The notes beneath the pieces were generated by a model that saw only the letters and a program-made list of their open reading frames with translations, was not told the origin of the DNA and did no database searches. Shown here piece after piece: positions 4,333 to 48,818 of a stretch of DNA of 64,000 bases. Each line of letters opens with the position of its first letter. The first letter of the stretch is position 1. A program made the translations under genes and the position numbers. The stretch comes from a phage, in assembly GCA_022979955.1 (NCBI GenBank), contig GCA_022979955.1_3642.1. One strand, 5' to 3'.

Positions 4333-5826
4333 TTACTTAGCGTACTCGATTAATTCCACAGTTTTCCCAAAGCTAGGGATATAATTTTTATTATACCCTT
4401 CGGTGAGAACCCATAAAGTATCGTACTTTTTCCACTTGTTGTCAACAGCCTTTTGTTCAAAGTTATGCTCAAAGTATAGGTCGGTCAGGACGATGACATC
4501 TTTTGCATTCGGTATGTTGGCATCCAGATACTCGAACACGCAAGCAGCTGTTGTGCCCCATGTTGAGTGTACCTCATAGTTGATCATCTCGTCTATGTTG
4601 CCGCGAGTGTATACTTTAACCTCTCCGACTTCAGTTGACCAACAGAACATTGTAACCTTAAACTCTTTATACAGATTGCACAATCCGGTGATTTCATTGA
4701 ACATTTTCTTTAAAGTTCTTTGAGAGATCGAGCCAGAAACGTCTAAAGCTACCACAATATCTATGGTGTTTTCCGGATTACGACCAGGAACAATAACGTG
4801 CTGGTTCTTGTTTATAGCCCCAACTTTTCGCATTGTGCTGGTCAAAGACCCAGATCGGCGACCAGGTTTTCTGTAGGTCAGTTCAGCCTTTCGTTTAGAC
4901 AACATGCGTTGCTTGATGATGTCTATATAATTAATTACAGGCTTACCTCTATTCTTGACAAACTCACGAACCGCCTCAGGGCAACGGCCTCCGGAAGCTT
5001 GCATTGCTGCCTCCAGCATGTCACCAGAGTCCTGCATGGCCTGATCTTTATCAGATTGACTGATTACAGGTTGTGGCTGATCATACCCCATAGCCTTTCC
5101 AAGATCATCACTAGTGCCACCGTTACCACTCATGTGATCGTCGGTTTGTCGTTTATCTCCTTGAGAGTTCTCGCCTTTACCGTTCTTACTTTTACCGCTA
5201 TTCTGATCTCTTTGCTTATCAAGAACCGCATAGACGTTCTCAGCAATCCATCCATGGAACCTCATGTCACAGTAGCAACTAGCTAAGAAGCCAAAAGGCT
5301 TACCTTTTACAAACGTAGTGCTTTTCCCCTTCGGGAAGAAAACACAAGGGGGCTTGCTAAAGTCAACCACAAGACCTGTGTTGATAACATGATCACAGGC
5401 AATATTGAACAGCTCCGGCTCAAAACTTTTGCCACGGACCAGATGATCACAGATAATATGCCCCACCTCATGCGATAGAAGAAATGCCACCTCTTTCACA
5501 GATTTTGGGGAATAGAAAACCTCAGCCATCTCAAACTGCTTGTCAGTCAAAGATGCTTTAAGAATGGTTTTGCGCTCATCCGCCAATCCCATAATGAACT
5601 CAGGGCTGTAATAAATGCGTTTATGGTCTGTTGCCATGGTGGAGCACCATGTGTGGTTTTCTACGAACTGCAACCCTGACAACAGTGTGCCATAAAACGG
5701 CAGTTTTTCAAGAAGATACATACGTGCTGCCTGCAGCATTCGCAAGGCGTCATCTTTTTGTGCGGCAATGATTTCTGAACTTCTGCTATCCATTAAAACT
5801 CCAGAAGGGGACTTGGCCCCTGTCAT
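4333..5826 (-). CDS. vWA-domain protein with zincin-like HExxH motif
   Basis: HEVGH (HExxH) in N-terminal half; MIDAS-like DxSGS (ALDVSGS) in C-terminal half; a MoxR-type AAA+ ATPase is encoded at 9456. Confidence 0.7.
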   Translation of the reverse strand: MTGAKSPSGVLMDSRSSEIIAAQKDDALRMLQAARMYLLEKLPFYGTLLSGLQFVENHTWCSTMATDHKRIYYSPEFIMGLADERKTILKASLTDKQFEMAEVFYSPKSVKEVAFLLSHEVGHIICDHLVRGKSFEPELFNIACDHVINTGLVVDFSKPPCVFFPKGKSTTFVKGKPFGFLASCYCDMRFHGWIAENVYAVLDKQRDQNSGKSKNGKGENSQGDKRQTDDHMSGNGGTSDDLGKAMGYDQPQPVISQSDKDQAMQDSGDMLEAAMQASGGRCPEAVREFVKNRGKPVINYIDIIKQRMLSKRKAELTYRKPGRRSGSLTSTMRKVGAINKNQHVIVPGRNPENTIDIVVALDVSGSISQRTLKKMFNEITGLCNLYKEFKVTMFCWSTEVGEVKVYTRGNIDEMINYEVHSTWGTTAACVFEYLDANIPNAKDVIVLTDLYFEHNFEQKAVDNKWKKYDTLWVLTEGYNKNYIPSFGKTVELIEYAK

Positions 5827-6815
5827 TATTTAACGTGCTTGAAAATACCAGCCAACTCGGTCATTGTCATGCGGGTGGTCTTCATAAGGTCTGTCATAGC
5901 CTTCTCCATAATTGGAGATACTACCATAAAGTTACCTTTGGTGAAACCTTTATTCCAATCAGTCACTAATAGTGGTTTAAGTCCGGTCCCGAGACGCTCA
6001 CCAGTTAAAGCACAACATTTTCGAATATACGTGCTCTTAAACTGACTGAATGACAGATCAACTTTCATACCTGCATCGTAGAACGTCTGGCAATAGAAAG
6101 TGTAAGCTTTGGCAATCTCAACATCGTCAGGCAGTGCAGGAACCTCTTCTGTAAGCTCTTCTTCGGCCTCTTGAGGCTCTTTTTCCTCTTCGTGATCCTG
6201 TTGCATCATTTCTTCAATCTCTTCTGTTACAGGCTCATTTACGATGTCAGAAATGTGCTTGTTGGCTCCACGATTAGCCATGAAGTTTTTAAAATCCTGC
6301 ATTGGTGACATATCTTCCTCCCATTCTTCGTCAAAGAGTGCTAGTTTATCCTCTTCCGTTCCATATTGCAAGATGAAATCTTCAAAAGTGTAATCACCTT
6401 TCAATTTCTCCATACGCTCTTCGCTCAGGTGGAGCATCATCTGCTGGACAATTTTTCGATCAGTTTTGTCTTTAATCAAGACTGCGGTCTTTTTATCTAC
6501 CAGACAGTCCTTTAGAGAGTTGCATCTCAATCCCACCACACAACAATTATCAACAGCATAAGGACCTTCATCATCTATCCGCTCTAGGGAGGGGTAGAAA
6601 GGATTTCCCAGTCCGTTTTCATCTGTGTGCATATCGAAAGGTATAAGGGTATAGTCGCACACCCCCTCTCCTAAAAGTTTTTTACCAAATAGGAGGTATT
6701 CTTCCCATGACAGGTTGAACTCTATATCTCGTTTCCGTGCATTATTTTGTTTGCGTCTGTATTTTTTGAGCAAGCGCTCTAACTCTTCTGGTGTATAATA
6801 TTTTTCAAGATTCAT
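5826..6815 (-). CDS. hypothetical protein
   Basis: ORF is open to 7004, but ATG at 6815 lies about 25 nt downstream of a minus-strand promoter with AAGAGA SD-like sequence; the longer start would overlap the promoter and start of the divergent plus gene. Confidence 0.45.
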   Translation of the reverse strand: MNLEKYYTPEELERLLKKYRRKQNNARKRDIEFNLSWEEYLLFGKKLLGEGVCDYTLIPFDMHTDENGLGNPFYPSLERIDDEGPYAVDNCCVVGLRCNSLKDCLVDKKTAVLIKDKTDRKIVQQMMLHLSEERMEKLKGDYTFEDFILQYGTEEDKLALFDEEWEEDMSPMQDFKNFMANRGANKHISDIVNEPVTEEIEEMMQQDHEEEKEPQEAEEELTEEVPALPDDVEIAKAYTFYCQTFYDAGMKVDLSFSQFKSTYIRKCCALTGERLGTGLKPLLVTDWNKGFTKGNFMVVSPIMEKAMTDLMKTTRMTMTELAGIFKHVK

Positions 6816-6846
6816 GAGTTGTCTCTTGTGCTCTGTAGGTGAAGAA

Positions 6847-6875
6847 ATCTTATCAAGTGCCTCAACAGATGTCAA
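6847..6875 (-). promoter_or_regulatory. sigma70-like promoter (leftward)
   Basis: TTGACA-17-TAAGAT read on minus strand. Confidence 0.5.
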
Positions 6876-6888
6876 CCTCAAAAACGTG

Positions 6889-6917
6889 TTGACTTTACCC
6901 CAAATCCACGATATAGT
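6889..6917 (+). promoter_or_regulatory. sigma70-like promoter (rightward)
   Basis: TTGACT-17-TATAGT, back to back with the leftward promoter. Confidence 0.6.
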
Positions 6918-6957
6918 GCACCCATTCGAAAGAAAACGAACACAGGAGTACTTAATC

Positions 6958-7857
6958 ATGGCAAATCTTAACAGCTTTAGCACTCGATGGAAACAAGATA
7001 TCACAACTAATCTCTCAGCAGGCGATATCCTTTCTGCAATTTACGAGGCTTTGGATGATAAAGCTACTTCAAAATCGGTTTGTACCAACCCGTTAATTCC
7101 TATGGTAATGAAGGTGATTGAGCGTAGGTTGGTATCCGGATCTGATAAGTGGACATATCTGGATAATGGAGGCCACACTTACTCCAACGGATATGTCGAT
7201 ATAAAAGTAGAATATGCGGTATCATATCGCCGGAGCGGCTCTGTAACTTTCAACTTCTCTGGTGGTTTCCGATCTCTGGCAACTTCACCTTTTGTTTCCT
7301 CAGAGGAGAGGTTTGAACTTCCGTTCCTTTGGATGATGGCTAACGCGACAGGCAAAACCCCTGTAAGCATTCGCGTAAAATACAACTACAACGGATCTAG
7401 TAAGATCTATGCCGAGAGTGTCTCAGCAAGTTTTTATTTTGTGATGGGGGATGGAATCCTCAAACATATAAAGATGTGCGATATGCATGATGTTATAAAT
7501 GAAGTGACTGATAAGAATGTTCTAGTGAAAGACCTCAACAATTTTTATACACCCGGAGACTATTACGTCAGCCGTCCACTGTGCATCTTTAATGCCGCAC
7601 ACCCTCTAGGTGAGTATTTGATCGCCAATAGCGATATTGCCAATAACCGCTTCGAGGTAGCAAGAGTTCAGAATGAGGTATTGACATCTTGCAAGAGCGG
7701 TGATAAGTTTACCGAAGAAGAGATGGGTGTTTTAGAAATGATGGGATATAAGTGTAGCCTTTGGGTAGATGAGGTGTTTAATGATTGCATCTATGGACAG
7801 GATATTTACCCATTAAAGAAGTATACTGATTCCAGTTTAATTTACGCGGAGATTTGA
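6958..7857 (+). CDS. hypothetical protein
   Basis: ATG at 6958 preceded by AGGAG (6944-6948); the longest-ORF start at 6814 would lie inside the divergent promoter region. Confidence 0.5.
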   Translation: MANLNSFSTRWKQDITTNLSAGDILSAIYEALDDKATSKSVCTNPLIPMVMKVIERRLVSGSDKWTYLDNGGHTYSNGYVDIKVEYAVSYRRSGSVTFNFSGGFRSLATSPFVSSEERFELPFLWMMANATGKTPVSIRVKYNYNGSSKIYAESVSASFYFVMGDGILKHIKMCDMHDVINEVTDKNVLVKDLNNFYTPGDYYVSRPLCIFNAAHPLGEYLIANSDIANNRFEVARVQNEVLTSCKSGDKFTEEEMGVLEMMGYKCSLWVDEVFNDCIYGQDIYPLKKYTDSSLIYAEI

Positions 7858-8132
7858 CTATGATGAAGTCATGTGGTAGTGTATATTATGTTGGTGAGAA
7901 TGTTCAGGCAGATAGTGTGTGGAAATCCATTAAGTCCACCACCGATGATGCCTTTCTGAGCGGGTTATGTTTTCCCAGCCCAGGGGACACCCTCCCTTAC
8001 CCTGGAGATTTTGTTGTCAACAAGATGGACGGTTATACCGTGTGCCTGATGGTTGAAAAAATCTTTTTAGACACTAGACACAATCACCGTCTTGTGTTAA
8101 AATTTCAAGAATGTAAAATGACAATTGCCTAA
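7854..8132 (+). CDS. hypothetical protein
   Basis: 92-aa ORF, 4-nt overlap with upstream gene. Confidence 0.4.
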   Translation: MTMMKSCGSVYYVGENVQADSVWKSIKSTTDDAFLSGLCFPSPGDTLPYPGDFVVNKMDGYTVCLMVEKIFLDTRHNHRLVLKFQECKMTIA

Positions 8133-8145
8133 GGAGACCTTGCCG

Positions 8146-8502
8146 ATGTCTAAAGTTACTTATCGTGCAGCTATTTACTGCAATGAACACCCAATCAATA
8201 GTGATGGTCACTGCCTTTTTAAAGAAAATCAATTGGGCTGTATTGTCCTCCCTGATGAAGGGGAAGGTTATCTGATTGCATTGACAGGGTTTGAACCTGA
8301 AGCTCTGGAAGCCAATCTGGACTACCTGGTAGAAGAGGGTGCTGCAGACCTGGTTGCCAATGGCTTCTCCGTAAGCCTTGACGAAGTGGAGCGCTTCATG
8401 GGTAATTACCGTGTAGTGCGTGAGTTTACTATCGAGGTGGAAACTCCAGAGTGGGGTAGCACTGAAACTAATGCCGAAGAAAAAGAAGAGGAGGTAGAAT
8501 AA
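8146..8502 (+). CDS. hypothetical protein
   Basis: ATG 8 nt after AAGGAGA; longer ORF start at 8125 lacks SD. Confidence 0.45.
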   Translation: MSKVTYRAAIYCNEHPINSDGHCLFKENQLGCIVLPDEGEGYLIALTGFEPEALEANLDYLVEEGAADLVANGFSVSLDEVERFMGNYRVVREFTIEVETPEWGSTETNAEEKEEEVE

Positions 8503-8759
8503 TGAAAGTACAGATCTTGACTAATGCCGAGAAGATGTTTATTGAAGATACACCTTTTGAAGCTGGTGAGCTACAGTTTGTTTATTTTGTTGACTTAGAT
8601 AAGGTGTTTCCTGCACTGAATCTGGGTCTGGATGAAGTTCCTCATAAGGTTTTGTGCCAAGTTGTTCGTGCCTTAGCGGCAGAGGGGGAGTTCCACACCC
8701 TTCAAGATGTCCAGACCTACGGGTATCTTGAACTACAACGAGAAGAAGAGGTGGACTGA
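8502..8759 (+). CDS. hypothetical protein
   Basis: 85-aa ORF, stop/start overlap with upstream gene. Confidence 0.4.
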   Translation: MKVQILTNAEKMFIEDTPFEAGELQFVYFVDLDKVFPALNLGLDEVPHKVLCQVVRALAAEGEFHTLQDVQTYGYLELQREEEVD

Positions 8760-8761
8760 TA

Positions 8762-9142
8762 ATGGCACGGTGGAAGACAACAGTTGACCTTCATGATCAG
8801 TGGTTAGGACGCATCACTGAAGACGGGAAACTAGTGGAGTGGGACAATAAGCATGTTAGCGAGTTGGCAAGCATTGTGGCTGGCAAGTTACGCTCCAAGT
8901 TCCCTGAACAACTGGATCCTGATAATTCAAAGTTCGATCCTGAGTTGGAGGATGTTGTATACTACTTCGATACCGTGGATGACTACGATGCGTGGTTTGC
9001 AGCACGGGAGCTTTACCCACAAGGCTCTGCTATGCGCCAGATGGAAGAAGATTATCCTCCGTGTGAGCAATTCAATAGTGCAATGACTTGCCTCTATGAT
9101 TGGGCAGATAAGAACCTTGTCTGGATTCGGACTGCATTTTAG
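8762..9142 (+). CDS. hypothetical protein
   Basis: 126-aa ORF in co-directional block. Confidence 0.45.
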   Translation: MARWKTTVDLHDQWLGRITEDGKLVEWDNKHVSELASIVAGKLRSKFPEQLDPDNSKFDPELEDVVYYFDTVDDYDAWFAARELYPQGSAMRQMEEDYPPCEQFNSAMTCLYDWADKNLVWIRTAF

Positions 9143-9186
9143 TGGGCAGGAATGGCGGCAAGGATGCTGCTTAAGGAGTAGTAGAG

Positions 9187-9456
9187 ATGTTATACCAGCA
9201 ATATGAACTTCGTGCAGAAAAAGAGTTAAATTTTGACAAAGATATTCACAGATATTATTATGGGAAAGTTAGAGGGCAAGCAAGAAAGTGTACTCCAACA
9301 CTCTTTTATGCCAGCAGACGACTAGCGCCAGAAGAGGCAACAGTAGAAAGGGTTGCGTACAACTGGAGAGTCACGTATGATATTGATAGATTCGATGTGA
9401 TATCTGTTTTGGAAAACTTTGAAAACACTTACACACAAGTAGAGGACTTTTACTAA
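9187..9456 (+). CDS. hypothetical protein
   Basis: 89-aa ORF, overlaps start of AAA+ ATPase gene. Confidence 0.4.
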   Translation: MLYQQYELRAEKELNFDKDIHRYYYGKVRGQARKCTPTLFYASRRLAPEEATVERVAYNWRVTYDIDRFDVISVLENFENTYTQVEDFY

Positions 9457-10640
9457 TGTCAAGAAACGTATTTGAAAGTGGTCAAATCACTGTCCGTGAG
9501 TTGCCAGCTATCATTCAGTTTGCCCAGCGTCATAACCGATCTGTCCTGATTTTAGGACCAATGGGTGTGGGAAAGAGTCAGGTGATGAAGCAGATCGCTG
9601 ATAATATGTTCGGTGAGCGAGATGACAACCTGGTTGACGTGCGGCTGTCAGATAAAGATCCTGCCGACTTATCTGGGCTACCTATCCCTGTAGAAGCGGA
9701 TGGGACTACACGTACAGTGTTTGCAATCCCAGAATTTTGGCCTGCGGATCCTGACTGGAGCGGAATTGTCTTTCTGGATGAGCTCACTCATGCAGATAAC
9801 TACCTGCAAAAGGTTGCAATGCAGATTATGCTCGACCACAAGTGCGGCACCTATGCATTCCCTAAGGGCTCTGTTTTTGTAGCTGCAGGTAACCGTTCTA
9901 CAGATGGTGCTGTTCTTTCGGCGCTCGAAGCCCCTCTGGCTAACCGCTTTATCATTGTAGAAGTTACAAGCAACGCAGAGGTGTTTATTGAGGACTACGC
10001 ATTCCTTAATGGGGTGCACTCCTCTGTAATTGGATATCTGAAAAGAGTTCCATCAGCTATTGATAATTATGAGGCCATGGCTGAGATTAATTGTCCATCT
10101 TTTGCCACACCGCGATCTTGGGTTGCTGCATCTGATATCTTGCACGATTTTGACAGCGGTATTATTTCTGACGCTATGGCCCGTGTTCTTCTGCAAGGTG
10201 CTATTGGTCACACTGCAGCGGTAGAGATCTGGACTTACCACACCAAGAAACGCAACTTACCGGAAATCGGTCGGATTATGGCAGGAGGTTGCAAAGAATA
10301 CGTAGGCCCTAAACAGCCAGACATCTTGTGGATTCTTGGATCTGAAGGTTGTATCGCTATTCGTAATATGATGGAAAATGCAAGTATCTCCGACGAAGAT
10401 CTTGTTAGCTGTGTGGCAAACTTCCTCGATTTCCTTTGGGAAAACTTCAAGGACGAGAACCGAGATTTTGTATTCTCAGTCTTTATGGCGATGATGAAAC
10501 CTAATGCCTTAGGAAATGCCTTGCTTATCGGTAAAGGTCGTGACAAGATTGTTGCTCAGCTGATCAAAGCATACCCAAACCTGATGAAGATTGTAAAAGA
10601 GTTTGGTGAAGAGTTTAGCGCCATTTTGGCTAAAGCTTAA
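9456..10640 (+). CDS. AAA+ ATPase, MoxR/CbbQ-like
   Basis: Walker A GPMGVGKS and Walker B IVFLDELTHAD; size and motif spacing fit MoxR-type ATPases that partner with vWA proteins. Confidence 0.75.
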   Translation: MSRNVFESGQITVRELPAIIQFAQRHNRSVLILGPMGVGKSQVMKQIADNMFGERDDNLVDVRLSDKDPADLSGLPIPVEADGTTRTVFAIPEFWPADPDWSGIVFLDELTHADNYLQKVAMQIMLDHKCGTYAFPKGSVFVAAGNRSTDGAVLSALEAPLANRFIIVEVTSNAEVFIEDYAFLNGVHSSVIGYLKRVPSAIDNYEAMAEINCPSFATPRSWVAASDILHDFDSGIISDAMARVLLQGAIGHTAAVEIWTYHTKKRNLPEIGRIMAGGCKEYVGPKQPDILWILGSEGCIAIRNMMENASISDEDLVSCVANFLDFLWENFKDENRDFVFSVFMAMMKPNALGNALLIGKGRDKIVAQLIKAYPNLMKIVKEFGEEFSAILAKA

Positions 10641-25049: not shown

Positions 25050-25385
25050 CACCAAATGGTGAAGCGTGGGTGGTACGATGAAGGTGTTCGCCGTATTATT
25101 TATTACCATAAATAACATTGTGGCTTCATAGAGTAATCTATGTCGAATAACCTCTTTAACTGCGGGAAGCCTAAACCTTATGGCAAGGTAATCCGCAACG
25201 AAGCGCTCAAAAGAGCGAACGCTCAGAGGCCATTCCGAAAGGAAGTAGACCAGCAAGTGCGGTCGAAATGGGAGGATTCCTGTGGTTGCTTATCATAGGA
25301 ATATGAGATGGTCCGATCCTACGTGAAAACGTATGGCTATGCACGTAATGGTGCGGGGTAGCTTAACGACCTACCTGAACTATTG
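25050..25385 (+). ncRNA. putative group I self-splicing intron, ORF-less
   Basis: 336-nt insert between in-frame polymerase segments; P-like AACUGCGGGAAG (25159-25170), Q-like AAUCCGCAAC (25190-25199), R-like GUAGACCA (25245-25252), S-like GAGAUGGUCC (25305-25314), GNRA-capped hairpin UUCC-GAAA-GGAA; ends in G at 25385; exact junctions uncertain. Confidence 0.5.
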
Positions 25386-45047: not shown

Positions 45048-45065
45048 TTTTTTAACTGAATTATC

Positions 45066-45092
45066 AAGGGGCTTAGGCCCCTTTCTTTTTGT
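45066..45092 (+). terminator. rho-independent terminator
   Basis: AAGGGGC-TTAG-GCCCCTT hairpin followed by TCTTTTTGT. Confidence 0.65.
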
Positions 45093-45689
45093 CTGCTCTT
45101 CTCCTACCATAAACGGCCCTACCTGGCAAGTGGAATAATTGACTAGCCATCAATCCCACATACTGTACAAATATACATGGAAAATAACTATTGCATAATT
45201 TTTCATTGTGTGGTAGCAAGTCCATTTTTACCCGTTTTCTCTCCCAAAAGTGCACGTAATGCCGCTATTGCACAAATTTTAACCTGATGCACATCTCTAA
45301 TATCTTGTCAACAACTAAAAATCTTTATAAGTCATACACTTACACAGCATCGAAAGCGTGTTCTACGCGAAAAATCGAGTATAACTATAGCCGCCAGATC
45401 TCAGAATTCACGTACGCACGCCATTCTATAGCCTGCAAAGTATTTATTCCAACCACAGAATAACGGAATAGTCAATACCTGCATAAAATAATTATTCGTG
45501 TAAACTGCATAACATAAATCAGCTCAGGTGTCAACATTTTTCGTAAACAGTTCGAAATTGTCACGGTAAGTTATTATACACAGAGAAATCTTTAGTCGTC
45601 TAATGGTTACTATACATTACTAATCTGACTGGAATCATTAGATGACTAATAGAAAGATAAGAAATAATTAACAGTCTAATTATATTAAC

Positions 45690-45970
45690 GATAACAATAA
45701 CAGCGGTTAAAGTCATGGCGCGACGGAGTCGCGACATAATAACACCGAGTAACCCTCACCCCCGTGAGCGTTGCGAATGTTATTATGCCATGACTAAATC
45801 ATTTCAACACGTAACTATAGGCATAACAACATTCCCTCGGTGTTATTATGTCGCTAGTTATTATATAACTGTTAACAATAACGCCTCGGGAATAGTTCTG
45901 CCTGCACGATGTTTATAACAGCAAGTTATGATCAACATTTCACAGATTATAATAACAGCGGTTAAAGTCA
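45690..45970. repeat. direct-repeat pair flanking a 19-bp inverted repeat
   Basis: AATAACAGCGGTTAAAGTCA exact at 45696-45715 and 45951-45970; inside, GCGACATAATAACACCGAG (45731-45749) and its reverse complement (45836-45854). Confidence 0.6.
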
Positions 45971-46597
45971 GGCGTAGAAACAGTGGAAGTGTAAACAGTC
46001 AATCATGTAAATGATAAGTATGTGAACAGTTATCCATGTAAACTATTAGACATGTAAACAATCAGGTGTGCAAAAGTGTCAAGGGTGTCACCATTGTGTC
46101 TAAAGTGTCGTATGTCATCAGTATGTCAGACAAGTTTTTCTCCTCTTTGTCAAGTGCTGCATGAAAAATTTACAATCTTGTATGGTAGCATTTTTGCGGT
46201 CCTGTTTACATTCAGAGATGTATGTATAATCCTTGTTGTGTGGGCGTTTAGACGTCTAGACGGTCAGAAGTCTGCAGGTCAATATCTAATCTATTGGCTG
46301 CTAACTATATCCCACACAAATAGTAAGAAATATAATTGTTATATGCGTAAACAGTAACCCATGTTATCAATCCCTGTATGGATCGCCAGTGGTGCGCATA
46401 ATGGGTATTATGTTAAATTGCCCGTAATGATAATGGTTCTCACAATGATATGTATTCTCATTCCCCCACACAAAATAGATTGCAAATGTTGTGCCACTAT
46501 GTGAACGGCCTCACCTATTAATTTGCCTCACTGCCTCGATATTTGAGAATTATTATAAGAATGAGAAGTATTCCCATTTCGTCCGCCTGGCAGCGCT

Positions 46598-46657
46598 CCT
46601 GTAGGTCCTGCAAGGACTCTAGCTGAAAGCTAGACCCTTCGGGCCTCCCTGTAGGTC
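46598..46657. other. three consecutive tetraloop hairpins bracketed by CCTGTAGGTC direct repeats
   Basis: GTCCT-GCA-AGGAC, CTAGC-TGAAA-GCTAG, CCC-TTCG-GGG; CCTGTAGGTC at 46598 and 46648. Confidence 0.4.
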
Positions 46658-46705
46658 AGGTCAAAATCGTGGTAGAATTGGGCCTATTCAGATATTTCTG
46701 GCTGG

Positions 46706-46900
46706 CTCTTCAGGTCTGTGTGGGAAAAGCCAACCTCTCCGGCGGGGCAGGGGGAGGTAAATTAAAAAATTTACGGGGTATATGAAGCGCTCTTCAGGTA
46801 AGGCATGTACTATGGGATGAAACCCTCTTCAGGCAATGATATTTGTGGGTGTGATATTTGCTGGAAAGCCAGATATGACGGGACTCCCGGCGGGGCAGGG
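46706..46900. repeat. degenerate tandem unit CTCTTCAGG...CCGGCGGGGCAGGG
   Basis: CTCTTCAGG at 46706, 46790, 46825 (also 47238, 47886); CCGGCGGGGCAGGG at 46739 and 46887. Confidence 0.55.
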
Positions 46901-47596
46901 GTAGTACAGACAGGGAAAATATGAGAATGTAGTTGGGGAAATTGATCAGACAGGTAGAGTATGGAATATGTTACAAGTATGTTAAATATGGAGGTTGAAT
47001 ATCTGTAGGATTTGTGTGTAAAATCAAAGACTTAAGGGGTGTTGTGGTATTTTCTATAAATAATTCAAGTTTAATAGGCAATATTTGTCTCTATCCGCTT
47101 TGTGTGGTAAACAGATTCAGATTAGATTGGTTTACAAGTGTATACATAATATACAAATTAAAGATACAAGAAACCCCCCTCCCCCTTCGGCTACCATTCA
47201 CCTTTTCCTCTGACTGGTACTTAAACACTTATTCAGACTCTTCAGGTTATCACCCATATATCATATGGCAGTGACTGGTGTCCTCCGGCCCCTCTTTCGT
47301 CACCCGTCCGCTTCGCCATGCTAATGCCATAGCTAATGGTTCGGTTGTTCACCCTGTTCACTCAGGTGTATCTCTATACCCCTTCAAACCGAAGAGAACA
47401 GAAAACCCGAATTACTCGGTAAAAGAAAAGAGAAGAACTTAATTTTATCAGGATAGGCAAGAATGTCAAGGCATGACTGCTCACTAAACAAGCAAACAGT
47501 CATGTGTGGGAGGTAAGTGATTGTGGTGGTAGGAAATTTAGTTGAAAGATGTGTTATAGGTGCTTCCAGCACTTTAGCCTGGCAGCTAATTGTGTG

Positions 47597-48506: not shown

Positions 48507-48818
48507 CTATACCCATGAGGGCTTATCAAGGTTGGAGTAGCTGAAAGGTGTCAAAAGGTGACTGTCAAAATCCCTCAAACTATCCAAATCTTTTTCCTCG
48601 TCCTGACACCATCTGTGCCTACATTTATTGTTGTAGTGCATAGAATGCATAGCGTTCTGCAACTTAACAGGTACAAGTGATTCAGGAGTAGATAGTATTG
48701 TTGGGTATGCCAGAATCACCTCAAACAGTGGAAACACATCGAAACTAAAGTCTACCTCTGCAGAGGTTGATGGCATATAGGAGTATTTAGCCGCCTTTGT
48801 AGACATAATCCACCTCAC
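48507..48818 (-). CDS. hypothetical protein
   Basis: 103-aa ORF. Confidence 0.4.
   Translation of the reverse strand: MRWIMSTKAAKYSYMPSTSAEVDFSFDVFPLFEVILAYPTILSTPESLVPVKLQNAMHSMHYNNKCRHRWCQDEEKDLDSLRDFDSHLLTPFSYSNLDKPSWV

Follow-up and report, generated by a model that had tools for sequence, protein, structure and literature searches.

The vWA-metallopeptidase and the MoxR-class AAA+ ATPase encoded on opposite strands of the window (the whole 64,000-nucleotide stretch of phage DNA analyzed here) are best explained as Vequintavirus representatives of a module conserved among phages, and as partners that still cooperate, forming a counter-defense device of the remodeling or protease type that is dispensable on K-12; we give this reading a probability of about 0.55. 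The DNA belongs to a Vequintavirus, a phage of E. coli of the rV5-like type, and shares about 96% identity with phage BP9. Both proteins and their pairing are already known objects, and both genes are annotated in the records of relatives. Preprint results for the 99%-identical phage Bas54 indicate the counter-defense role, and existing transposon-sequencing (Tn-seq) data partly answer the question raised by a sequence-only reading of this DNA, namely whether the two proteins continue to act together.

Analysis of ORFs, strands, and coordinates (Table 1) confirmed the earlier observation that the two genes are divergent, with starts 3.6 kb apart. Counting from the junction at which the two arms meet, the vWA gene comes second on one arm and the ATPase gene seventh on the other. 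The sequence-only reading placed the pair across a divergent promoter, which fits the divergent arms but is overstated, since several genes separate each of the two from the junction and a separate promoter may serve the ATPase. The best σ70-like candidate of the region lies inside the 89-aa ORF that precedes the ATPase gene, and the ECML-10 record annotates a σ70-type promoter at the corresponding place, in the small ORF upstream of its ATPase. Because the whole promoter scan found 14 sites versus 13.0 expected from shuffles and thus no enrichment, these σ70-like sites are predictions only. The Srd-like gene, the first on the minus-strand arm and directly upstream of the vWA gene, is context outside the ATPase/vWA module; besides phrog_3118, its product had weaker matches to Srd and σ70-decoy PHROGs. 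No Pfam or NCBIfam match was found for those intervening genes that were searched, and the 89-aa ORF belongs to phrog_13164, which is labeled "ATPase" without domain support. As separate transcription units, the two genes may differ in stoichiometry and timing, which would speak against joint action.

Table 1. Genes, motifs, and candidate promoters of the window discussed in the text
Feature	Position	Strand	Description
vWA-metallopeptidase gene (N4 gp25 type)	4333..5793	-	486 aa from the likelier start; DUF2201_N + DUF2201
MIDAS D438	4480-4482	-	completes MIDAS motif with T414
MIDAS T414	4552-4554	-	completes MIDAS motif with D438
MIDAS DVSGS	4729-4743	-	
H117	5443-5445	-	
HEVGH	5458-5472	-	residues 108-112
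Srd-like gene	5826..6815	-	329 aa; phrog_3118; "anti-sigma factor" in relatives
Divergent intergenic region	6816..6957	.	142 bp; back-to-back σ70-like promoter candidates
Candidate promoter TTGACA-17-TAAGAT	6875-6847	-	TG extension; consensus match
Candidate promoter TTGACT-17-TATAGT	6889-6917	+	consensus match; in intergenic region 6816-6957
Five genes between junction and 89-aa ORF	6958..9142	+	function unassigned
Gene labeled "putative 1-3 fucosyltransferase"	6958-7857	+	phrog_12338
Intervening gene 2	about 7860-8132	+	ORF
Intervening gene 3	8146-8502	+	ORF
Intervening gene 4	8502-8759	+	ORF
Intervening gene 5	8762-9142	+	ORF
89-aa ORF before ATPase	9187..9456	+	stop overlaps ATPase start (TAATG)
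Candidate promoter TTGACA-17-TATTAT	9233-9261	+	inside 89-aa ORF; best σ70-like candidate of the region; 11/12 consensus matches
MoxR-class AAA+ ATPase gene (N4 gp24 type)	9456..10640	+	394 aa
Walker A GPMGVGKS	9555-9578	+	residues 34-41
Walker B IVFLDE	9765-9782	+	residues 104-109
Sensor-1 N146	9891-9893	+	
99-aa gene	48507..48806	-	function unassigned; 100% identical to bas54_0140

In the vWA protein, Pfam detected the putative metallopeptidase domain DUF2201_N (4.8e-28; 99 bits against a gathering cutoff of 23.2) followed toward the C terminus by the VWA-like domain DUF2201 (3.7e-11; 43.7 bits against a cutoff of 26.4). These findings bear out the zincin-like and vWA motifs of the sequence-only reading. 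The ATG at 5793, giving 486 aa rather than the 497 aa of that reading, is the likelier start, as it has a GGAG Shine-Dalgarno sequence 5 nt upstream and is annotated in BP9, navn, Bas49, Bas53, and Bas54, whereas the ATG at 5826 lacks a Shine-Dalgarno sequence and overlaps the stop of the upstream gene. In an alignment of 26 sequences with identity down to 24%, H108, H112, D351, S353, S355, T414, and D438 were invariant and E109 and H117 were at least 90% conserved, with HAVCH replacing HExxH in one homologue. A disordered linker rich in Gly, Asp, and Lys occupies residues 200 to 229. Structure searches identified the C-terminal domain as a vWA fold with a complete DxSxS...T...D MIDAS and returned vWA-domain matches only, with no zincin. 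Peptidase_M48 gave a weak secondary match over the HEVGH motif, and we found no publication in which a DUF2201_N domain was demonstrated to be an active peptidase.

The designation of the second protein as a MoxR-like AAA+ ATPase was upheld by its motifs, its homologues, and its nearest structures. Along with the Walker A, Walker B, and sensor-1 motifs, we found N146 and the conserved arginines R147, R164, and R220 (finger and sensor 2) to be invariant across 39 homologues. The window ATPase itself scored below the Pfam cutoffs for AAA_5 (16.4 bits versus 22) and bpMoxR (15.8 versus 27); homologues at E values of about 1e-44 and at 35% identity carry AAA_3 and AAA_5, and the L025 homologue scores AAA_3 at 38 bits. 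An AF2 model (pLDDT of 86) places hairpins at residues 75 to 90 and about 129 to 134, which we interpret as the helix-2 insert and the pre-sensor-1 hairpin, and predicts an extra C-terminal helical domain at about residues 288 to 393. Foldseek with this model ranked NorQ and CbbQ at the top (E value of about 5e-8; TM-score on target of 0.64 to 0.67), with the NorQ-NorD(VWA) complex also among the structures nearest to the model. When solved structures were searched by profile, midasin came out closest. The profile check for CobS/CobT-like families suggested earlier found no such family listed in Pfam and no NCBIfam family for the vWA protein; for the ATPase, NCBIfam gave only sub-threshold ClpB-type matches. 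A CobS/CobT aerobic cobaltochelatase identity is therefore not supported by these searches.

Similar to the window pair, the MoxR CGN-type systems NorQ/NorD and CbbQ/CbbO include a partner with a C-terminal vWA domain and a DxSxS-T-D MIDAS. Sequence identity is only 16 to 22%, however, and the phage ATPase has an extra C-terminal helical domain of about 100 residues, its partner contains an HExxH zincin domain, and NorQ/NorD and CbbQ/CbbO are known to act on metabolic enzymes. As a mechanistic template, these systems offer a hexamer to which one vWA protein docks, inserting a finger into the pore and making a second contact through the C terminus (PMC13036017); we identified no equivalent of this finger in the phage pair. 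E. coli RavA/ViaA and the system of Acidianus two-tailed virus follow the same logic of a MoxR ATPase with a vWA cofactor, but they belong to other MoxR subfamilies, lack a peptidase domain, and have respiratory complexes and virion tails, respectively, as clients.

Closer relatives are found in other phages. By tblastn and profile HMM, the ATPase gp24 and the vWFA-domain protein gp25 of N4 and their Schitoviridae orthologues belong to the same two families as the window proteins, although identity is only about 21 to 27%. N4-like phages have 14 core genes, two of which are N4 gp24 and gp25, both middle transcripts (PMC4193335). We detected the N4-type families in LIT1, in Vibrio PhiImVa-1, and in numerous further N4-like phages, and the RaK2 record ties its ATPase to N4 Gp24 by name. 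A MoxR and peptidase-vWA pair was also described in 2021 in group 2.2 jumbo phages (Iyer et al., PMC7824862); the pair in RaK2, GAP32, and PA5oct shares the architecture of the window pair, with an N-terminal metallopeptidase and a vWA domain, and has detectable homology to it.

The claim that such partners are usually encoded side by side was supported. In 68 of 70 informative IMG/VR viral loci, the ATPase gene is followed on its own strand by the DUF2201 gene (immediately in 66 and after a gap of about 0.5 kb in 2), and the pair is adjacent in 39 of 46 genome loci holding both genes, with one further locus containing a fused ORF. Colinear or adjacent pairs occur in S-TIM5, PBS1, RaK2, PA5oct, LIT1, Vibrio PhiImVa-1, and phiTE, and in N4-like phages the colinear genes are adjacent or one small gene apart within the replication module, in contrast to the opposite strands in the window. 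Furthermore, the tblastn records for the two genes (813 and 671) cover matching host genera. The split arrangement is limited to the Vequintavirus/Seunavirus/KpS8-like clade and is common to GAP31 and L093. In phiTE and L094, the pair is colinear and a hydrolase/helicase block occupies the opposite arm, and relative to the phiTE gene order a single inversion would explain the split. Gene-order comparison suggests that this inversion took place in an ancestor shared by Vequintavirus, Seunavirus, and KpS8-like phages, that it spanned the divergent early-promoter junction with a breakpoint between the two genes, and that it would have shifted the ATPase onto the other arm. Both genes are still under strong purifying selection, with dN/dS of 0.017 to 0.044 for the vWA gene and 0 to 0.04 for the ATPase gene.

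Functional data exist for Escherichia phage MaxBurger (Bas54), in the form of a 2025 preprint. The window ATPase is identical to bas54_0063 (MoxR ATPase) at 392 of 394 residues and the vWA protein to bas54_0055 (putative metallopeptidase) at 479 of 486. With orthologues about 99% identical in the same gene order, we see no meaningful difference from the Bas54 pair, and the Bas54 results should transfer directly. On K-12, Tn-seq classed both genes as nonessential, with insertions tolerated at 94% of TA sites in both (10.1101/2025.11.20.689424). On the clinical isolate CFE311, a natural DS-28-bearing host, bas54_0063 had a log2 fold change of −7.23 (adjusted P of 0) and bas54_0055 one of −2.20 (adjusted P of 0.009), corresponding to complete loss versus about 4.6-fold depletion (10.1101/2025.11.20.689424 supplementary table); the sheet used is titled K-12_vs_CFE303, but its command line and input files say 311. 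The neighbors bas54_0056 to 0062 and 0064 to 0067 were unaffected on CFE311, which argues against polar effects; these include the Srd-like orthologue (log2 fold change of −0.08), the orthologues of the five intervening genes (bas54_0057 to 0061), and that of the 89-aa ORF (bas54_0062) (10.1101/2025.11.20.689424). A 0063 knockout was specifically sensitive to the cloned two-gene defense system DS-28, and the anti-DS-28 genes named in the preprint are 0063 and 0140 and do not include 0055 (10.1101/2025.11.20.689424). Thus, the cloned-DS-28 result concerns 0063, and the evidence for 0055 is Tn-seq depletion on CFE311. Since about 27 of 227 Bas54 genes were significant on this isolate (10.1101/2025.11.20.689424), chance codepletion of 0055 is not negligible.

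These same data raise the possibility that the pair was uncoupled after the inversion, with the ATPase acting against DS-28 alone or with another adaptor (for example, of the bas54_0140 type) and the vWA-peptidase acting independently elsewhere. We consider this possible though unlikely. The far weaker phenotype of the vWA-peptidase on CFE311 counts against joint action, as does the naming of 0140 rather than 0055; the genes are on separate transcription arms, the ATPase with its own candidate promoter; and no DUF2201 gene was detected in 21 Campylobacterota ATPase loci with at least 1.3 kb of downstream sequence each, implying that some members of the ATPase family may do without this partner. 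However, all of the Vequintavirus, Seunavirus, and KpS8-like genomes examined keep both genes intact, and none of the phage genomes examined with sequence available has one gene without the other. The invariant catalytic and MIDAS residues, dN/dS values of at most 0.044, and depletion of both genes on CFE311 while all neighbors were neutral likewise argue against uncoupling.

A role of the pair in virion assembly, as a chaperone with a processing protease, appears quite improbable. Such a role was proposed for the homologous, colinear jumbo-phage pair (PMC7824862), whereas the Vequintavirus Tn-seq data point to dispensable counter-defense. The proposal is consistent with the MoxR-vWA system reported as required for Acidianus two-tailed virus tail assembly, with genes annotated as virion structural, Hsp70, or Hsp20 adjoining the RaK2 and S-TIM5 pairs, and with an "ESI-MS/MS" note on the PA5oct ATPase. 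Nonetheless, the Bas54 pair tolerates insertions, unlike the prohead protease, scaffold, capsid, and tail genes, which had essentially none (10.1101/2025.11.20.689424). In the window, in N4-like phages, and in metagenomic phages, the module that carries the pair is an early, middle, or replication one, with rIIA/rIIB and helicase, DNA polymerase, or exonuclease and thymidylate synthase genes as neighbors, and the N4 transcripts are middle rather than late (PMC4193335). Finally, an auxiliary metabolic chelatase-like or metal-cofactor-insertion system of the CobS/CobT, BchI/BchD, or NorQ/NorD type is highly improbable: NorQ/NorD, nearest among the solved structures, do serve in metal insertion (PMC13036017), but Pfam and NCBIfam gave no CobS/CobT, NorD, or chelatase family match, an HExxH zincin domain replaces the N-terminal region of NorD/CbbO, no candidate metalloenzyme client lies nearby, and the observed phenotype is tied to a defense system.

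We therefore return to the preferred reading, in which the two proteins most likely still act together despite the split. On the model of NorQ/NorD and CbbQ/CbbO, the ATPase would form a hexameric ring with a single vWA partner bound to it, and this partner would use its MIDAS site to take hold of a target protein at an acidic residue. Energy from ATP hydrolysis would then serve to remodel this target, which would be cut by the attached HExxH domain. In such a complex, the ATPase would overcome DS-28 and the vWA-peptidase would add fitness on a DS-28-bearing isolate.

A more specific version, which we regard as unlikely, is that the split pair, possibly with the 99-aa protein, forms a trans-assembled ATP-dependent protease that recognizes and destroys a DS-28 component or a DS-28-triggering phage protein and that this is the ancestral job of gp24/gp25. 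If true, the gp24/gp25 module, present in more than 650 sequenced phages, would be among the most widespread phage anti-defense machines, and the pair would be the first demonstrated case of a MoxR-vWA protease. The 99-aa gene itself may supply a third component or act in parallel against DS-28. Its product is unrelated to the vWA-peptidase and could instead be the real partner of the ATPase against DS-28.

By several independent lines of genomic context, the MoxR-class ATPase and the vWA-peptidase form a module. An IMG/VR scan with the ATPase profile gave 80 loci, whose flanks we searched with HMMs. The vWA gene lay immediately downstream on the same strand in 66 loci and about 0.5 kb downstream in 2 more, and the remainder ended at a contig edge (10 loci) or carried the vWA gene on the opposite strand (2 loci); these counts are not phylogenetically independent because one clade (~33% identity) dominates. 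The two opposite-strand loci were one Vequintavirus (98% identity) and one relative at 53% identity. Scanning of bacterial genome and MAG contigs with the ATPase alignment gave an adjacent pair in 39 of 80 loci and a fused ORF in one. These frequencies bear out the sequence-only reading, which held that the two partners are usually encoded side by side.

The same linkage was observed beyond these scans. The nearest ATPase homologues outside Vequintavirus, from large metagenomic phages, have a DUF2201_N/DUF2201 gene directly next to them, downstream, and colinearity also occurs in the unrelated isolates cyanophage S-TIM5, Bacillus phage PBS1, RaK2, PA5oct (where a homing endonuclease separates the two genes), Vibrio PhiImVa-1, LIT1, and phiTE. 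By tblastn, the two genes (813 and 671 records) had matching distributions across phage genera. The 14 core genes of N4-like phages include gp24 and gp25 of N4, the latter with a vWFA domain; both belong to the middle transcripts (PMC4193335), and the ATPase of RaK2 is annotated as equivalent to N4 Gp24. In jumbo phages, a MoxR and peptidase-vWA pair was described by Iyer et al. (PMC7824862). Our literature search found nothing joining either rV5/Vequintavirus or N4-like phages with MoxR.

We rejected Rosetta-stone fusions as proof of partnership. The two long matches in the top 150 vWA-peptidase homologues, P0168 and P0221, are not ATPase fusions, and the sole fused ATPase/vWA ORF (L067, from a single MAG) is possibly a frameshift error and is weak evidence of partnership. 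P0168 (794 aa) contains an intein (Hint plus LAGLIDADG) within DUF2201_N, estimated to lie shortly after the HExxH region, and P0221 (733 aa) has a large internal insertion at a similar place; inteins usually occupy functionally critical sites.

In the window, the two genes are divergently transcribed, as had been read from the sequence, and their arms meet at a junction with back-to-back sigma70-like hexamer pairs, which are candidates only because the promoter scan was not enriched over shuffles. GAP31 (Seunavirus) and the viral locus L093 are split in the same divergent way, with the two genes 4.4 and 3.8 kb apart. In phiTE (Certrevirus, same subfamily) and the viral locus L094, the ATPase gene is followed by the vWA gene on one strand, and the hydrolase/helicase block occupies the opposite arm; in the window, the hydrolase lies two genes from the ATPase in the same direction. 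The window order can be derived from that of phiTE by one inversion that spans the divergent junction and has a breakpoint between the ATPase and vWA genes. From these gene orders we infer that the split originated by inversion, and what we add here is that it is probably an inversion specific to this lineage, in a module that is tightly linked elsewhere. Comparisons with four relatives gave dN/dS values of 0.017-0.044 for the vWA-peptidase gene and 0-0.04 for the ATPase gene; by this measure, both genes have remained intact and under selection since the split.

Features of the window discussed in the text
Feature	Position	Strand	Remark
vWA-peptidase ORF	4333-5826	-	Pfam DUF2201_N (4.8e-28) and DUF2201 (3.7e-11)
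DVSGS of MIDAS	4729-4743	-	
HEVGH	5458-5472	-	
Srd-like "anti-sigma" gene	5826-6815	-	directly upstream of vWA-peptidase gene
Junction of divergent arms	6816-6957		
Terminator-like hairpin	9119-9132		upstream of ATPase gene
89-aa ORF	9187-9456	+	stop overlaps ATPase start (TAATG)
Best promoter-like site of region	9233-9261		upstream of ATPase gene
ATPase ORF	9456-10640	+	
CwlJ/SleB-type hydrolase, rIIA, rIIB, Dda-like helicase			downstream of ATPase gene
Group I intron RF00028 (Rfam)	25100-25335	+	64.7 bits, E 4e-14, full model covered
ORF-poor stretch	~45050-47590		
Perfect 19-nt inverted repeat	45731-45749 / 45836-45854		within ORF-poor stretch
99-aa protein (phrog_12072)	48507-48806	-	100% identical to bas54_0140; 38 kb from ATPase

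The decisive information on the function of the pair came from a phage transposon sequencing preprint (10.1101/2025.11.20.689424) that included Bas54 (Escherichia phage MaxBurger), to which the window ATPase (392/394 identical to bas54_0063) and vWA-peptidase (479/486 identical to bas54_0055) are closely related. On K-12, bas54_0055 and bas54_0063 carried insertions at 94% of TA sites and were classed as non-essential. On CFE311, a clinical isolate bearing the two-gene defence system DS-28, bas54_0063 was completely depleted (log2FC -7.23) and bas54_0055 was significantly depleted (log2FC -2.20, adjusted p 0.009), with genes 0056-0062 and 0064-0067 neutral (10.1101/2025.11.20.689424). A polar transposon effect is unlikely to explain the bas54_0055 phenotype because insertions in the directly upstream 0056 were without effect. 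This co-depletion of the vWA partner is in the published supplementary data but was previously unremarked. Knockouts of 0063 and of the unrelated 99-aa gene 0140 were specifically sensitive to cloned DS-28 (10.1101/2025.11.20.689424). In the same preprint, the Extended Data Table 8 sheet "resampling_K-12_vs_CFE303" has the command line and data files for CFE311, and a later sheet gives values for genes 0060-0079 identical to the 311 run; the stored file thus seems to lack the CFE303 comparison and, with it, an independent second condition.

These data bear on whether the two proteins still belong together. The very different strengths of the 0063 and 0055 phenotypes and the existence of bas54_0140 would fit an uncoupling of the pair after the split, an explanation that we consider unlikely but serious; the depletion of both genes on CFE311 speaks against it. 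An assembly chaperone or protease role is improbable; the dispensability of both genes on K-12 argues against an indispensable morphogenetic function.

The ATPase ORF contains Walker A, Walker B, sensor 1, and the invariant arginines. The Pfam AAA scores of the window protein itself were below threshold; it retrieved hundreds of AAA_3/AAA_5-bearing homologues at E ~1e-44. Its AF2 model (pLDDT 86) was closest to NorQ, the NorQ-NorD(VWA) complex, and CbbQ, and the family profile best matched midasin among solved structures. These results uphold the assignment as a MoxR-like AAA+ protein. The CobS/CobT-like families suggested earlier as candidates gave no signal in Pfam or NCBIfam, and we rejected a CobS/CobT or chelatase identity; a chelatase-like function is very improbable.

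For the vWA-peptidase, the sequence-only reading had described a 497-aa protein combining HEVGH with a vWA MIDAS motif. The motifs stand: HEVGH and the full MIDAS (DVSGS, T414, D438) were invariant in a 26-sequence alignment reaching down to 24% identity. The length does not, as the most plausible start is ATG 5793, which is preceded by a GGAG Shine-Dalgarno sequence, is annotated in relatives, and yields 486 aa. An exhaustive profile search placed 25,552 cluster representatives in this family. PADLOC gave no meaningful match for the vWA-peptidase or the ATPase.

NorQ/NorD may serve as a template for the mechanism of the phage pair. In that system, one vWA protein docks on the hexamer via a pore finger and its C-terminus, and client binding has been suggested for the NorD MIDAS motif (PMC13036017). 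In an analogous phage complex, the partner would be held by the ATPase ring through its C-terminal vWA domain and would engage an acidic residue of the target through its MIDAS site, and remodelling driven by ATP would bring the target to the HExxH domain. Residues 305-343 of the vWA-peptidase, just before the vWA core, are conserved and basic, with R312 nearly invariant and P336 invariant; we speculate that they are a candidate pore-inserted element.

MoxR-vWA systems are abundant and poorly understood, and we know of almost none with a defined client. The phage pair is tractable for asking what such a machine binds and does because it is dispensable on laboratory E. coli, shows a clean conditional phenotype (sensitivity to DS-28 on loss of the ATPase in Bas54, which is 99% identical to the window phage), and includes a partner with a putative protease domain. 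The natural separation of the genes also allows each to be manipulated easily without polar effects, and substrate and mechanism are directly testable in this pair.

The sequence-only reading of the pair was correct and well read, and the existence and identity of the genes were already known, with one of them functionally characterised. Over 7 kb, the window region shares ~96% identity with Escherichia phage BP9 and with >100 further Vequintavirus (rV5-like) genomes, whose records call the vWA gene product a "metal-dependent peptidase" or "metallopeptidase" and its partner a "MoxR-like ATPase." Elsewhere, DUF2201_N/DUF2201 proteins are widely labelled "HNH endonuclease" (GAP31, phiTE, LIT1, RaK2, PA5oct, and many others), as is PHROG 1314; this looks like a propagated annotation error because Pfam gives only DUF2201_N and DUF2201 for the window protein, and phage records of the DUF2201 partner should be read accordingly. 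Sixteen to 18 MG0656xx records ("Campylobacter phage," host Campylobacter jejuni) share 95-100% identity with Vequintavirus genomes of E. coli in the regions compared, which suggests mislabelled hosts or coliphage contamination of the data set.

The ATPase is the seventh gene of its arm, and its neighbourhood belongs to the early, accessory part of the genome. In the ECML-10 record, a sigma70-type promoter is marked at the place corresponding to the best promoter-like site, within the small ORF that precedes the ATPase. The 89-aa ORF carries the label "ATPase" or "MoxR ATPase" in PHROG 13164 and phage navn; it had no domain match in Pfam or NCBIfam, and its Bas54 orthologue had no phenotype on CFE311.

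No tRNAs were found anywhere in the window. The ORF-poor stretch (~2.5 kb without ORFs >93 aa) separates a plus-strand from a minus-strand ORF block and holds short repeats with a ATAATAACA core. By coordinate offset it corresponds to the bas54_0134/0135 intergenic region, where the HIDEN-SEQ study saw no transposon insertions; it may contain a replication origin or some other essential cis element.

Among Campylobacterota, L010, L013, L025, and 18 other ATPase loci, mostly from Sulfurovum, form a subgroup in which no DUF2201 gene was detected in the locus. On the complete chromosome of Sulfurovum sp. CS9, the one such case that we examined, an overlapping 462-aa ORF with no Pfam match precedes the ATPase, which is flanked by M14 carboxypeptidase and ArsB genes; this may be a different partner.
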